Source: Escherichia phage vB_EcoM_Lh1B
Sequence record: OK428535.1
Length of the DNA: 64,000 bases
Reading direction: 5' to 3' (one strand)
Under the pieces are notes generated by a model. The model was given only the letters and a program-made list of their open reading frames with translations, was not told the DNA's origin and did no database searches. A program made the position numbers and the translations under genes. Positions 2,876-43,980 of this stretch are shown piece by piece; the stretch's first letter is position 1; each line of letters begins with the position of its first letter.

Positions 2876-3673
2876 ATGAAAGCGATTCACACCTTTCGCA
2901 TGACCGGCCAAACTGTTCTCGACATTGATGCGTACGAAGCCGCTAACTTCACCAAACCGACCAAGCTCTGGGATCGCCTGGTTAAGGTACTGCCGCAAAG
3001 CGGTGAGGTGCAGTTGGATTTTGTCATGGCATCGACGTTGGATAAGACAGTGGCAGTTATTTATACTGCTGACGGTGTGCAGAGTAAGAAGGACCTGGCA
3101 ATCGAAGATAAAGGCGGGCTGGGTTATCACTTGTTCCTGCACTGCGTAACCACTGCACCGATTTCAGCTGCGCTGGCGGGACAGTACGGTTTCGCGAATG
3201 CGTATTTCCTGGCACAGAAACTCGCCGTGAATGTTATTCCGGGTGACGTGACCACTTACCCTGAATACGTACAGCGTATCCTGCCAGAGCACTTCGCTGC
3301 AGACGACTACGATTTCAACGTGTTCCGTTTCGCATTGATCGGCGAATCGCGCGATCCAGAATACACCGTTGGCTTGCGTGCCTGTCTGCGTCACTCCGTT
3401 ATCTCTTCGGATGAAGGGATGTCGAATAACGTGAACGAAGTGTTCCCGATGATGCAAGTCGGTCCGTATATCACTTTCAACTCGTACATTCCGTTCCCGG
3501 CACAGATTCTGCCGCCGCAGAACGATAACAGTGNACNGCCAATCGCCGACAAGTATTCACTGCGTGCGAGCGAAGCAGTCGAAGTGATTAACGATCGTCG
3601 CTTTACATTGTCAGTGACCAGCGGCATCAGTGAACCGGAAGTTGCGGTCTCTCAGAGCCTGGATTTGATGTAA
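2876..3673 (+). CDS. hypothetical protein (265 aa), codon-biased, probably well expressed
   Basis: RBS AAGGAAAA upstream of ATG; optimal-codon bias leaves antisense shadow ORFs; terminator immediately downstream. Confidence 0.65.
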   Translation: MKAIHTFRMTGQTVLDIDAYEAANFTKPTKLWDRLVKVLPQSGEVQLDFVMASTLDKTVAVIYTADGVQSKKDLAIEDKGGLGYHLFLHCVTTAPISAALAGQYGFANAYFLAQKLAVNVIPGDVTTYPEYVQRILPEHFAADDYDFNVFRFALIGESRDPEYTVGLRACLRHSVISSDEGMSNNVNEVFPMMQVGPYITFNSYIPFPAQILPPQNDNSXXPIADKYSLRASEAVEVINDRRFTLSVTSGISEPEVAVSQSLDLM

Positions 3674-40143: not shown

Positions 40144-40596
40144 ATGTTTCAATGTTCAGTCGTCAATGATGCGGAATTGGCCGTGTACAAGCAGCGCACA
40201 ATCCGGGCGCTGGATGCTGAAAAACCAGTCGATCTTAAAACGCGTGCAATCATTAGGGCATTTAGCGAATGGCCGAACATCGCAACCGTTTGGGCATTCA
40301 CGGGAGAAGTTCGCAAAGACGGAGACAAGCTTCGTACACGTAGACACCACAGCTTAACATTTGTGGCAACCGTGGCGGGTCTTAAAGACATTAACCATTT
40401 ATTAGAAGGATGGCAGCCGCACGAGTACGGGAAACGTTTTCAGTTAAACTTTACTTGGCTGCGTCAAGAAGGCAATGCGAATCTCTGTTATCCAAGCTGG
40501 ACGTTTAGACTCAACTATCGACCCGACCCAGATGTGATGGAAAGTGTGATGGAGCACTGGCTCGCACTCGCAATTTTTACAGAACACAACCATTAA
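40144..40596 (+). CDS. hypothetical protein (150 aa)
   Basis: ORF. Confidence 0.5.
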   Translation: MFQCSVVNDAELAVYKQRTIRALDAEKPVDLKTRAIIRAFSEWPNIATVWAFTGEVRKDGDKLRTRRHHSLTFVATVAGLKDINHLLEGWQPHEYGKRFQLNFTWLRQEGNANLCYPSWTFRLNYRPDPDVMESVMEHWLALAIFTEHNH

Positions 40597-40624
40597 ATGA
40601 AGACAACCTTAAGGAGAATTAAAG

Positions 40625-41095
40625 ATGCCAGTTTTATACGGCGGCGTGGACCTGGATGTTCTGGGTCGGTTTAAACTACGAACGTCTAAGGCGCTCGTAA
40701 ACGGTTGGGTTGAGAAAGGCGTACGGGATGCGTGTGAGGTCATTTGTAGTTATCCTGGTGCCACGACAATGTGGTCGTGTCACGGACACGGACCGTATTC
40801 TAAAAAGAACACACCGGGGGAATTTCATGTGGTGTTCGTTCTTGGCATCGGCTTTGAACACAAAGCACATGAGCTTGTCGCTGAGTTAATGAAAGCGGAT
40901 ATTCCGCCACTGTGGGATTTGTGCATGGCGAGACTCTTGTACCCTGATGAGGATTTCGTCTACGACCTCAGCGAGATCACCCTAAAGAACACGTATAACG
41001 CATGGAAAATAACGTATCGGCATCTGCATACCGAACAAACTCTTCGCGAAATTCGTAAAGTATTCCACACTGTCTGTAAAAAGGTTTTTAAGTAA
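40625..41095 (+). CDS. hypothetical protein (156 aa)
   Basis: AAGGAG RBS; ORF. Confidence 0.5.
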   Translation: MPVLYGGVDLDVLGRFKLRTSKALVNGWVEKGVRDACEVICSYPGATTMWSCHGHGPYSKKNTPGEFHVVFVLGIGFEHKAHELVAELMKADIPPLWDLCMARLLYPDEDFVYDLSEITLKNTYNAWKITYRHLHTEQTLREIRKVFHTVCKKVFK

Positions 41096-41793
41096 TGGCT
41101 AAGCAAAAGAAACCCCGTAACAAAAAGTATAACCCAAAAGCTGCTACAGAGCGTACAGCGCACACCATCGCTGAAAACGCACTGAACCGCATCACCTTTA
41201 TTGGCAGCTCCATTCGCCGCCTCGGCCCGTACGCGGGCCGCGGTTTTCACTTTACAGCAAGTCCACGTATTCGTGCTATCGCCNCAGACATGTTAGTCGG
41301 CGGATTGTTCGACCAACCGCGCCCATGGCACCTGTGGGTGATGCACCTCACCGAACTCGACAGCGGTGAGGTTGTGACTGAATCTGCCGTCGCCACGCTT
41401 GACGATTATACACTGGCTGATTTCTGCGAACATGCCGAAGAGCTGGTTAAATCGCTACGTCCTGAACAGGAAGAAGGGAAATATTTCGGTTATGCGTTTG
41501 TGGCCGCCCCGAACGAGCGGTACGACTTCAAAGCGGAAGAAGACCAACTCATTGAAAACTTCATGCATTCTGGACTACTTGATACGTCGTTACATCTGTC
41601 GGAAGAACAGCAGTTCGTTAGTCGTGCAGATATGGCAAAGTTACTTGTTGGTTATACTCGGAAGTTTGACGTGACCGTTGAACATGTCAAAGAAGTACCA
41701 GAGATTNTNANCNAGAAAGACGAGGTGGTGCTTCCGGTTGACGAGGTTGTCAGTAAAGTAGCGACTGCGATAGGGGCAACGGGGGATTACTGA
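41095..41793 (+). CDS. hypothetical protein (232 aa)
   Basis: ATG overlaps upstream stop; ORF. Confidence 0.5.
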   Translation: MAKQKKPRNKKYNPKAATERTAHTIAENALNRITFIGSSIRRLGPYAGRGFHFTASPRIRAIAXDMLVGGLFDQPRPWHLWVMHLTELDSGEVVTESAVATLDDYTLADFCEHAEELVKSLRPEQEEGKYFGYAFVAAPNERYDFKAEEDQLIENFMHSGLLDTSLHLSEEQQFVSRADMAKLLVGYTRKFDVTVEHVKEVPEIXXXKDEVVLPVDEVVSKVATAIGATGDY

Positions 41794-42002
41794 TGAATCT
41801 ACGTTGGCCGATCGTGGCTGCTGTGTTGTTTTGTATTTATATCGCCATCAGCACCAGTACCCGCACTGCAGAACGTCGCGAGACCGCAACCAGTACGTTC
41901 AGAATGTGCATTGACCGCGTAGACCCGAACAGTACCACTTATCCTGACGCGGTGAATGCGTGCCGTAAAGCAGTTGCTGAGATATTGAAAGAGGAAAATT
42001 AA
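41793..42002 (+). CDS. small membrane-anchored protein (69 aa)
   Basis: Hydrophobic N-terminus WPIVAAVLFCIYIAI; translationally coupled. Confidence 0.45.
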   Translation: MNLRWPIVAAVLFCIYIAISTSTRTAERRETATSTFRMCIDRVDPNSTTYPDAVNACRKAVAEILKEEN

Positions 42003-42229
42003 TGGAAAACCTCACGCCGGTTGAGATAGTGGCGCTATTCGATCGTTACGTATATGGACAAACGCAGGCAAAGAAAATGNTGGCGATTGCGCTACGTAAT
42101 CGATACCGTGCCAATAAACTTAACGTAGTGGACCGTATGTCGGTCCACAAACAGAACCTTTTAATAGAAGGTCCAACAGGCACGGGTAANNCNNAGTTGA
42201 TGCGTGAAGAAAAACAGAAACAAAAGTGA
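42002..42229 (+). CDS. HslU (ClpY) N-terminal fragment: AAA+ unfoldase N-domain truncated after Walker A
   Basis: LTPVEIVALFDRYVYGQTQAKK..AIALRNRYR...NLLIEGPTGTG matches the HslU N-terminus motif for motif; stop follows at 42227-42229. Confidence 0.6.
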   Translation: MENLTPVEIVALFDRYVYGQTQAKKMXAIALRNRYRANKLNVVDRMSVHKQNLLIEGPTGTGXXXLMREEKQKQK

Positions 42230-42237
42230 GGTAAAGG

Positions 42238-43245
42238 ATGACGAAGCTCGTTTCGTTTTCAGCAGGGTTGGATTCCACCTGGATAATGTATCAGCTGCTA
42301 TGCAAAGCACCGGCCAATGAAGCACGACATGTCCGTCCTGCGTATTTCTCCATGTGGAATGGAGGTAACGCGAACTTCATGGAAATTCTTTGTAGCGTGG
42401 CCATTGTTGAACGGTTGATGGATAGACACCATGCACAAACCGATCATGTTACATGGGCGGTGCTCGGGGAAGAGAACTTCCCGCCTGTCGTTACCGCTGG
42501 ATATGCTAACGGCTGGTCGCCTCTGGTTCAGCAGGGCAATGTTGTTAATGGTCTCGCTAAACTGATGTGTGGTATTACGCGCAAACAGCACCACGCCTAT
42601 GCAGTTGTTGGTTGGAATAAGCTAGATGCGTTGGAGAATAGTCTAGAGCTGGGAGATTGGACATTAGACGAGTACGCTCGCTTAAAGAACCTCTATAGCG
42701 AATTGATGTATTTCCAAGATCATGCCGGTCGCGTTCCACCGCTTCTAACACCTGCGTGGGATAAAGAGAAACTGGAAATGTGGCAGGAGTTGCCGGAAGA
42801 TGTTCGTAGGTTGGTACAGGTCAGTAACTACAACAACTACGAATTCGCGATAGACCGTGGGAATAACGTGCTCATCGTTTATGCCAATCCGTCAGCAAAG
42901 TCGCAGAATTATCGTAGTCTTGGTATTACACCGTCAGTGGGATGGGAGATTAAAATCAACGATGCTTACAGACGGGTATGGTGTTCTGCTCTTGGTAGTG
43001 CTATTTCTGCTATGGGTTTGGGCGTACCGGCTTTTGCTAACTTTAAGGACCCGGAAAGAAACCACACGNCCTTTACGGTAAGNGAAGATACTGACCGGTT
43101 ATGCATCACATCGTTTACCGCGGAAGAGTGGTGCGAGTATGCGCCACATTTTAAAGCGCTTCAGGAGAAAGAAAAAGAGANAGNNAAAAATGCCAAAGCA
43201 AGTAAAGCTGNGGACGCCCCAACTGGCGAAGNGGCGGATAGCTGA
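42238..43245 (+). CDS. hypothetical protein with N-terminal PP-loop-like motif (335 aa)
   Basis: LVSFSAGLDST resembles the SGGxDS PP-loop of ATP pyrophosphatases; 3' end N-containing. Confidence 0.4.
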   Translation: MTKLVSFSAGLDSTWIMYQLLCKAPANEARHVRPAYFSMWNGGNANFMEILCSVAIVERLMDRHHAQTDHVTWAVLGEENFPPVVTAGYANGWSPLVQQGNVVNGLAKLMCGITRKQHHAYAVVGWNKLDALENSLELGDWTLDEYARLKNLYSELMYFQDHAGRVPPLLTPAWDKEKLEMWQELPEDVRRLVQVSNYNNYEFAIDRGNNVLIVYANPSAKSQNYRSLGITPSVGWEIKINDAYRRVWCSALGSAISAMGLGVPAFANFKDPERNHTXFTVXEDTDRLCITSFTAEEWCEYAPHFKALQEKEKEXXKNAKASKAXDAPTGEXADS

Positions 43246-43573
43246 AAAACGGAATTTGCCAAAGCTGGATATAACGGTTAAGTCGGGGCTGAAATATTTG
43301 GCACCCGACTGGGACTTTCTGATGGACTACAAGAAGTCTGACAAAGGCCCCGACGCAGAAGCTGCGTATACCAAACGCTACCTGCAGAAACTTAGTCGGT
43401 TGTTTGATGAAGACACCGATAAGTTGATAGAGATTCTCCGCCAGGGCGAGGTCGTACTAATGTGTTATTGCCCACCGGGGAAATTCTGTCATCGCCACTT
43501 GCTAGTTTCCTACCTTATTGAAATCGGTGAGTGGTTCGGTTATGAAGTAATTTACATGGGCGAGTTATCGTAA
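43190..43573 (+). CDS. DUF488-like protein (127 aa)
   Basis: C-terminal VVLMCYCPPGKFCHRHLL resembles the conserved Cys...CHR motif of DUF488; overlaps upstream ORF across Ns. Confidence 0.4.
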   Translation: MPKQVKLXTPQLAKXRIAEKRNLPKLDITVKSGLKYLAPDWDFLMDYKKSDKGPDAEAAYTKRYLQKLSRLFDEDTDKLIEILRQGEVVLMCYCPPGKFCHRHLLVSYLIEIGEWFGYEVIYMGELS

Positions 43574-43584
43574 GGAGAGTCCTC

Positions 43585-43980
43585 ATGAAATTGATTATGC
43601 CTAAAACCGTTCCTAATCAGGATATGGTTACGACTACACTGTTTTCTGAATCATTACGCAACTCTGTACGTCAGACCGCTTCACGTCTAGACGTGGCAGT
43701 TGAAGAACTCGACCCNGAAGTCTTCATGAAGTATGCGTTTATTGCAGAAGGTTACGCGATCGCCCTGAGTTATGCGCGGTATGTCGATGACGTGACAGAA
43801 GCTAAACGTTATTTAGAAGGCTGTTGTCAAGTTTTCCGTGAAGAAATCACCGAGATGGAGATGGTTGACCGCGGCTTACCTGAATTTGTAAAGGTGGGTT
43901 ACGATAAGCTGTTGCAATCCATCGCGGATGAAATCGGACGTCGCGGGTTAACTGTAGTGCACAGCGCTACACTGCACTAA
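43585..43980 (+). CDS. hypothetical protein (131 aa)
   Basis: GGAG RBS; terminator downstream. Confidence 0.5.
   Translation: MKLIMPKTVPNQDMVTTTLFSESLRNSVRQTASRLDVAVEELDXEVFMKYAFIAEGYAIALSYARYVDDVTEAKRYLEGCCQVFREEITEMEMVDRGLPEFVKVGYDKLLQSIADEIGRRGLTVVHSATLH

Follow-up and report, generated by a model that had tools for sequence, protein, structure and literature searches.

The 64,000-nucleotide stretch of DNA from Escherichia phage vB_EcoM_Lh1B analysed here (sequence record OK428535.1; referred to as the window) contains a 75-aa open reading frame on the plus strand (42002-42229, ATG start, TGA stop), which is very probably a chimeric gene remnant produced by a microhomology-mediated deletion and drifting without a function of its own. 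The frame consists of codons 1-65 of a phage hslU-like gene, followed in frame by the 3' end (last 10 codons and stop codon) of a gene for a 110-aa signal-peptide protein. The features of the locus are as follows.

41793-42002, plus strand: upstream gene of 69 aa, hydrophobic N-terminus (phrog_28359, E 5e-50)
41990-41995, plus strand: Shine-Dalgarno-like AGAGGA, 6 nt before the ATG, read from the sequence
42002-42195, plus strand: hslU-like-derived part, codons 1-64 and the first two bases of codon 65
42130-42146, plus strand: perfect hairpin GGACCG-TATGT-CGGTCC inside the remnant, read from the sequence
42170-42193, plus strand: codons 57-64 with the Walker A motif (P-loop; GPTGTGKT in the relatives), in part hidden by Ns here
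42196-42204, plus strand: deletion junction with the 9-bp microhomology GTTGATGCG, a single copy in the window
42205-42229, plus strand: tail EEKQKQK and TGA stop, from the 3' end of the 110-aa signal-peptide gene, the rest of which was deleted
42238-43245, plus strand: downstream gene of 335 aa (phrog_8825), conserved in all relatives on the 3' side of the locus

The start codon of the remnant and the TAA stop codon of the 69-aa gene share one base (TAATG), and in Salmonella phages 1252, SPLA3 and MET_P1_082_240 the 69-aa gene directly precedes the intact hslU-like gene. The context of the AGAGGA motif is identical upstream of the intact gene in SPLA3, and the motif is the original ribosome-binding site of the hslU-like gene, kept in the remnant. 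The segment from 42002 to 42195 spans the N-terminal helices, strand β1 and Walker A; with the masked residues filled from the copy in Escherichia phage vB_EcoM_EC001, the peptide reads MENLTP(I/V)EIVALFDRYVYGQTQAKKMLAIALRNRYRANKLNVVDRMSVHKQNLLIEGPTGTGKTALMREEKQKQK. The TGA stop codon is followed after 8 nt by the start of the 335-aa gene, the ribosome-binding site of which (GAGG, 42228-42231) is located within the kept tail of the 110-aa gene. A scan of the region 40500-43600 for promoters and terminators yielded nothing above chance. Because its ribosome-binding site, the coupled start and the ribosome-binding site of the downstream gene are all retained, the stump peptide is probably still transcribed and translated.

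The N-terminal part of the frame was compared with bacterial HslU (ClpY, the ATPase of HslUV; PDB 1g4a, 1do0; TIGR00390). Residues 1-69 aligned colinearly and without gaps with residues 1-69 of E. coli HslU (E 4.9e-14, phmmer against the PDB with masked residues taken from EC001), the shared motifs being AIALRNR.R and GPTG.GKT. Positions 1-65 of the 441 positions of the NCBIfam model for hslU, TIGR00390, were aligned with an E-value of 1.9e-16 and 60 bits, and the curated whole-protein cut-off of this model, 362.45 bits, was not reached by the stump. The coverage of the 552 positions of phrog_4339 was confined to positions 2-70 for the stump (E 1.9e-31) and extended over positions 2-529 for the intact protein of phage 1252 (E 1.8e-148). 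Judged from these alignments, the HslU likeness of residues 1-65 or 1-69, respectively, clearly lies far beyond chance, and the view of the initial annotation that the frame is a free-standing N-terminal piece of HslU was borne out by the matches to the PDB, TIGR00390 and phrog_4339. Both the N-terminal helical segment and the Walker A motif (GPTGxGKT) of HslU were found, the latter being complete in the unmasked relatives. Searching the 75-aa ORF against Pfam gave no match with the masked residues in place and only generic P-loop matches below the threshold after unmasking; because Pfam holds no model for the segment preceding the P-loop, NCBIfam, the PDB and PHROGs were used in its place.

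The remaining parts of the ATPase are absent, as had been claimed before. A tblastn search of all six frames of the 64-kb window with an intact relative of 586 aa only recovered aa 1-68, at 42002-42205. The stump represents only 15% of a bacterial HslU protein, and it lacks the GYVG pore-1 loop, Walker B, sensor 1, the arginine finger, sensor 2 and the C-terminal α-helical subdomain, as well as the I domain and the HslV-docking C-terminal tail. It is predicted to be unable to bind or hydrolyse ATP, form a hexamer or dock on HslV. Compared to the intact phage HslU-like proteins (phrog_4339), codons 69-586 are missing, including an insert of about 290 aa which replaces the I domain, and the tail is foreign. 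Details of the initial annotation had to be corrected here. The reading frame does not stop directly after Walker A, but continues for 11 residues to its end, an alanine followed by LMREEKQKQK, with the tail originating from another gene. Furthermore, the motif TPxEIV..GQ..AKK..AIALRNR had been taken for the substrate-recognition region, but it belongs to the N-terminal helical segment of the AAA+ large subdomain close to the nucleotide site; substrate recognition by HslU is the task of the I domain and the GYVG pore loop.

To identify the parents of the frame, we turned to the relatives of the phage. The window showed 93-97% identity to SPN3US-like jumbo phages of the genus Seoulvirus in megablast comparisons. 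A word-index protein search with the 75-aa query only returned near-identical short proteins, and the intact protein was used as a second query. An intact hslU-like gene of 586 codons is present in Salmonella phages 1252, SPLA3 and MET_P1_082_240 (annotated as hslU in the last), starting at the same TAATG after the 69-aa gene, and codons 1-65 of the stump are 97-100% identical to these Seoulvirus copies, with which it shares the start position, the ribosome-binding site and the upstream neighbour. In the ORF of phage 1252, the first 68 residues equal those of the stump and are followed by GKTALMRVLKTKFGLPVLELDMTAFTESGYVGREV. The gene for the 110-aa signal-peptide protein is located farther downstream in the relatives, and its versions in SPN3US, 1252 and Proteus phage 7 all end with LNAKLMREEKQKQK before the stop codon; the tail of the stump, LMREEKQKQK plus stop, is identical to its last 10 codons.

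The 9-bp sequence GTTGATGCG occurs exactly twice in each intact locus, in codons 65-68 of the hslU-like gene and in codons 100-103 of the 110-aa gene. The repeat starts at 1697 and 3653 in 1252 (L003), at 2695 and 5123 in SPLA3 (L008) and at 2695 and 5122 in MET_P1_082_240 (L009), corresponding to spacings of 1956 bp in 1252 and 2427-2428 bp in MET_P1_082_240 and SPLA3. The megablast breakpoints between the window and these loci overlap by exactly the 9 bases of GTTGATGCG. Thus, both parent genes are found intact at the same place and in the same order in relatives, and the same repeat is present at both breakpoints with one copy at the junction. With one copy of GTTGATGCG in the window and two in the intact loci, the frame is a fusion left by a deletion, and the join is in frame because both repeats are positioned in the same codon phase.

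The course of events was the following. The ancestor contained the 69-aa gene, the intact 586-aa hslU-like gene, the 110-aa secreted-protein gene and the 335-aa gene, with a 161-aa gene between the hslU-like and the 110-aa gene if it was of the SPLA3 type. An illegitimate deletion between the two 9-bp direct repeats, by either replication slippage or annealing, then removed the stretch from codons 66-68 of the hslU-like gene through codons 100-103 of the 110-aa gene. The loss amounts to 1956 bp from a 1252-type or to about 2428 bp from an SPLA3-type ancestor, destroying the hslU-like and the 110-aa genes and, in the latter case, also the 161-aa gene. It is generally well known that genes of phages and bacteria decay through microhomology-mediated deletions which leave in-frame fusions, and the case described here is of this kind in having short direct repeats (9 bp) at both parental sites, one of them kept and the intervening sequence gone. 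Its only oddity is that the fusion is in frame and therefore resembles a small gene.

The intact relative allowed us to trace the ancestry of the stump. The protein of phage 1252 (L003, 1503-3263) aligned with residues 1-109 and 242-414 of E. coli HslU (E 9e-49) and scored 209 bits with TIGR00390. It contains the GYVG pore-1 loop, Walker B, sensor 1, the arginine finger, sensor 2 and the C-terminal subdomain, and is thus predicted to be a complete HslU-type ATPase. In place of the I domain, it carries the insert of about 290 aa (residues ~110-401), which has no detectable similarity to HslU, and the alignment stops at HslU residue 414, before the HslV-docking C-terminal tail. Because of these two properties, the intact phage protein may not work with HslV at all.

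The order of a 232-aa gene, the hslU-like gene and the 335-aa gene is also kept in phage SPAsTU (72% identity of the hslU-like proteins) and in Erwinia phage Machina (50%), which belongs to a different genus; therefore, the intact arrangement is ancestral. Further intact members of the family are encoded by Erwinia phages Huxley and Kwan, and a more distant one is gp116 of Erwinia phage RAY, an HslU-like accessory protein which is reported to localise in the phage nucleus (PMC10299810). For Salmonella phage pSal-SNUABM-04, it was stated that no HslU subunit was detected in the genome (PMC7823757). We observed that this phage (MT710307.1) encodes a homologue of 577 aa at 106144-107871 with 50% identity to the HslU-like protein, which is annotated as 'putative DnaA protein'.

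These comparisons also bear on whether the stump might derive from a recent capture of the 5' end of a host hslU gene. Enterobacterial HslU is indeed the closest characterised homologue, but over 65 codons, the stump and the phage's own gene show 97-100% identity, whereas the intact phage protein shares only about 40% identity with Salmonella HslU, and this only over the roughly half of the protein that aligns. Moreover, the versions of this gene in Salmonella and Erwinia phages have diverged so far as to share 50% identity, with the synteny kept. A host origin is therefore hardly credible, and the low identity to host HslU together with the conserved synteny identifies the stump as a derivative of a long-standing phage gene. 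From the earlier proposal of a possibly decayed captured host gene, the decay holds, and the capture does not, as the gene belongs to the phage lineage itself, sister phages having an intact copy and Erwinia phages a syntenic one.

Because several Ns are located within the reading frame, a frame artefact had to be excluded, as had already been pointed out. The affected positions are 42080, 42190, 42191, 42193 and 42194, rather than 42189-42193 as previously listed; 42190, 42191 and 42193 are within the Walker A codons, and 42194 is the first base of codon 65. Four other copies of the remnant are available at the DNA level, three in complete genomes (Escherichia phage EC001, Salmonella phages SPLA1a and JN03) and one in an assembly contig (Logan), all of which are of the same length and encode GKTA at the masked site. 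At the masked P-loop positions, the three phages read AA.GG. Because the unmasked copies are equal in length, the Ns hide no frameshift, and the suspected artefact is excluded. The window contains 259 Ns in total, which occur singly or in small clusters (e.g. 41707-41713 and 43181-43185) at sites which are invariant among the relatives; this indicates that they represent low-quality base calls, as in several records of SPFM phages. We also considered that the four Ns at the junction might reflect a mixed population of two junction variants, since they cover exactly the four bases which differ between the parents, and rejected this because Ns occur at invariant sites elsewhere.

The same data speak against a sequencing or assembly artefact hiding a full-length hslU-like gene. 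Such an error might be suspected in a window with 259 low-quality calls, four of them inside the P-loop codons, but the missing part amounts to about 2 kb instead of a few bases, the Ns elsewhere are single-base replacements at invariant positions which leave the length unchanged, and three independently sequenced complete genomes as well as the Logan contig show the identical length and junction without any Ns. We consider the chance of such an artefact to be negligible.

The base directly 5' of the junction repeat, 42195, is an A in the window and a C in all other copies of the remnant, and A is the base present in the 110-aa gene copy. In addition, the flanks of the window differ from those of SPLA3, which carries the intact gene, by only 5 and 7 differences per 1300 bp, compared to 17-118 differences from the other remnant phages (region 40700-43500), and the nearest flank markers (-75, +45, +248) are of the intact type. 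Because of this A and the flanks almost identical to those of SPLA3, the sequences suggest that the deletion in the window was a second event at the same repeat, independent of that in EC001, JN03 and SPLA1a. Recombination within a single deletion origin is a possible alternative, because in the Logan contig, the left flank resembles that of SPLA3, the right one has the usual remnant markers, and position -1 is a C. The four Ns mask the bases diagnostic for one or two deletions: GGTAAAACGGAG (GKTE) at the masked site would correspond to a point change after the usual deletion, whereas either GGTAAAACTAAG (GKTK) or GGTAACGCTAAG (GNAK) would correspond to a different crossover point and thus to an independent deletion event.

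Copies of the remnant are found in public sequences, alongside 135 intact alleles. The same 75-codon ORF is present in the three complete genomes, and about 116 public contigs encode an ORF of 74-77 aa of the remnant family, which is open in nearly all of them. An open frame is expected anyway for an ORF of 228 nt at such a low divergence. Among the 16 full-length remnant variants, 10-13 of the first 65 positions are variable, with the changes L4H, A11S/T, L12P/S, Q22P, D44Y, M46T, M46H with S47T, T59R (in most alleles), T64A and T64M. All of 27 intact homologues from phages and bacteria keep T59 and T64 of Walker A, and among 14 distinct intact proteins only one of the first 65 positions changes (I7V). 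This comparison of alleles carries a bias, because short proteins which are distinct from one another can only differ inside the 75 aa.

Several of the alleles can be traced to defined mutations. The loop of the hairpin at 42130-42146 is present as its reverse complement, ACATA, in some alleles (L012, about 3129-3145; P0002, P0005, P0018), resulting in M46H/S47T, and this loop inversion is a textbook quasi-palindrome template-switch mutation. Variants of 77 aa ending with EEKTETKVR (L012, 3001-3234; among P0008, P0011 and P0014) are due to slippage in the A-run of the tail, which added one A, and one 77-aa variant ending with QKQKVR has lost the stop codon. In one contig (P0012), a second deletion joined the P-loop codons of the stump out of frame to the 335-aa gene at GCACG, and the protein sequence is the outcome expected from joining two GCACG motifs.

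The dN/dS values among the three intact Seoulvirus hslU-like genes were 0.11-0.12. Counting lineage-specific DNA changes, we obtained 4 non-synonymous and 2 synonymous changes for the five remnant copies vs. 2 and 9 for the intact genes, a difference which is not significant at these small counts (Fisher p = 0.11). The pattern seen in the remnants, with changes at invariant sites, a proline in helix 1, frameshifts in the tail and a further deletion, would fit a relaxed constraint but does not prove it.

The hslU-like gene was also lost by another route. In SPN3US, the SPFM phages and Proteus phage 7, the deletion involved a different repeat of 8 bp, GCGCTATT, the copies of which are located in codons 11-13 of the hslU-like gene and in a hairpin after the stop codon of the intact gene. 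In SPN3US (NC_027402; L002, 4003-4090), an unannotated stub of 12 codons is left, MENLTPIEIVAL, followed by read-through into the intergenic region. The neighbouring 161-aa gene, present in SPLA3 (L008, 4342-4824), was lost in phage 1252 (L003, 3263-3354) and Proteus phage 7 (L005, 1503-1604) at the short repeat AACCC(C)A. Thus, short-repeat deletions of at least two kinds have eliminated the hslU-like gene, and a third one of this type took a neighbouring gene. The HslU-like ATPase is dispensable in SPN3US-type nucleus-forming jumbo phages, and the locus represents an accessory, deletion-prone region which provides natural knock-outs for the study of the intact protein.

The fold of the stump peptide was modelled with AlphaFold2, using the peptide alone (P0001 sequence). 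No confident fold was obtained (pLDDT 69.6, pTM 0.34), and the native β1 strand was not predicted, whereas residues 1-40 formed N-terminal helices of moderate confidence (pLDDT 74-82). In HslU structures, residues 1-65 make up no more than a portion of the first α/β-subdomain segment, with one central β strand without its sheet. The low-confidence model agrees with this known structure, and the stump does not appear to be an autonomous domain or fold.

Because of its accidental origin, the foreign tail, the allele pattern and the absence in sister phages, we infer that the stump is a pseudogene-like leftover without a function of its own. A functional micro-protein acting as a poison subunit or decoy, directed either against host HslUV or against the intact HslU-like protein of a co-infecting phage, appears very improbable. 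It would agree with the retention of the original ribosome-binding site and the coupled start, with the ORF being open in almost all of the ~116 contigs and with the predicted helices in residues 1-40 (pLDDT 74-82). On the other hand, the fusion is the product of an accidental deletion, its tail is foreign, residues 1-65 are not an autonomous domain, the alleles vary at conserved sites (L12P, T59R, T64A/M) as well as in the tail, and no such ORF is present in SPN3US, the SPFM phages, Proteus phage 7 or the phages with an intact gene, which makes it dispensable. The same points leave nothing in favour of the purpose-made decoy or dominant-negative N-domain which had been proposed in the initial annotation.

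In the most specific form of such a function, to which we assign a marginally lower probability still, the translated stump would insert its two N-terminal helices into HslU-type hexamers or cap them, either those of host HslU or, in mixed infections, those which a competing Seoulvirus forms from its intact HslU-like protein, and the allele would have spread as a dominant-negative poison subunit. If this were true, the deletion allele would be common because it is dominant-negative, and not merely because the gene is dispensable. Small phage inhibitors of host AAA+ proteases are known, such as PinA of phage T4 acting on Lon and CIII of phage lambda acting on FtsH. The stump resembles them in being a small phage polypeptide which could in principle target an ATP-dependent protease of the host. 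To our knowledge, inhibitors of the PinA and CIII type are not fragments of the ATPase itself.

We regard the stump as an ordinary gene remnant, and the finding is otherwise ordinary as well. Its copies carry labels such as 'putative heat shock protein' (EC001) or 'ATP-dependent protease HslVU ATPase subunit' (JGI/IMG); the remnant should rather be flagged as a truncated fusion and not be counted as a phage chaperone or protease gene. Literature searches on HslU in combination with SPN3US or 'jumbo phage' yielded no account of the stump. Many of the ~116 contigs with the stump are phage contigs of ~240 kb in assemblies of Salmonella and E. coli isolates. Jumbo phage contigs of this kind and size are present in well over a hundred assemblies of Salmonella enterica and E. 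coli isolates from surveillance sequencing, which suggests that Seoulviruses are frequently carried by, pseudolysogenic in, or contaminating such isolates.

Some observations concern the neighbouring genes. The downstream 335-aa gene had been described as PP-loop-like, for which Pfam, the PDB and PHROGs gave no support: its product has no Pfam match and no significant sequence match in the PDB. It contains an N-terminal SAGLDS motif and shares 31% identity with the homologue of Erwinia phage Machina. The 161-aa gene belongs to phrog_7478, labelled 'head maturation protease', and its match to Pfam Peptidase_S80 only reached an E-value of 0.013, so this protease label looks weakly founded. Finally, a 144-aa ORF at 43139-43573, which overlaps the end of the 335-aa gene, encodes a DUF488 protein (PF22751 DUF488-N3a, E 1.1e-11); it is annotated with a length of 127 aa in the relatives.
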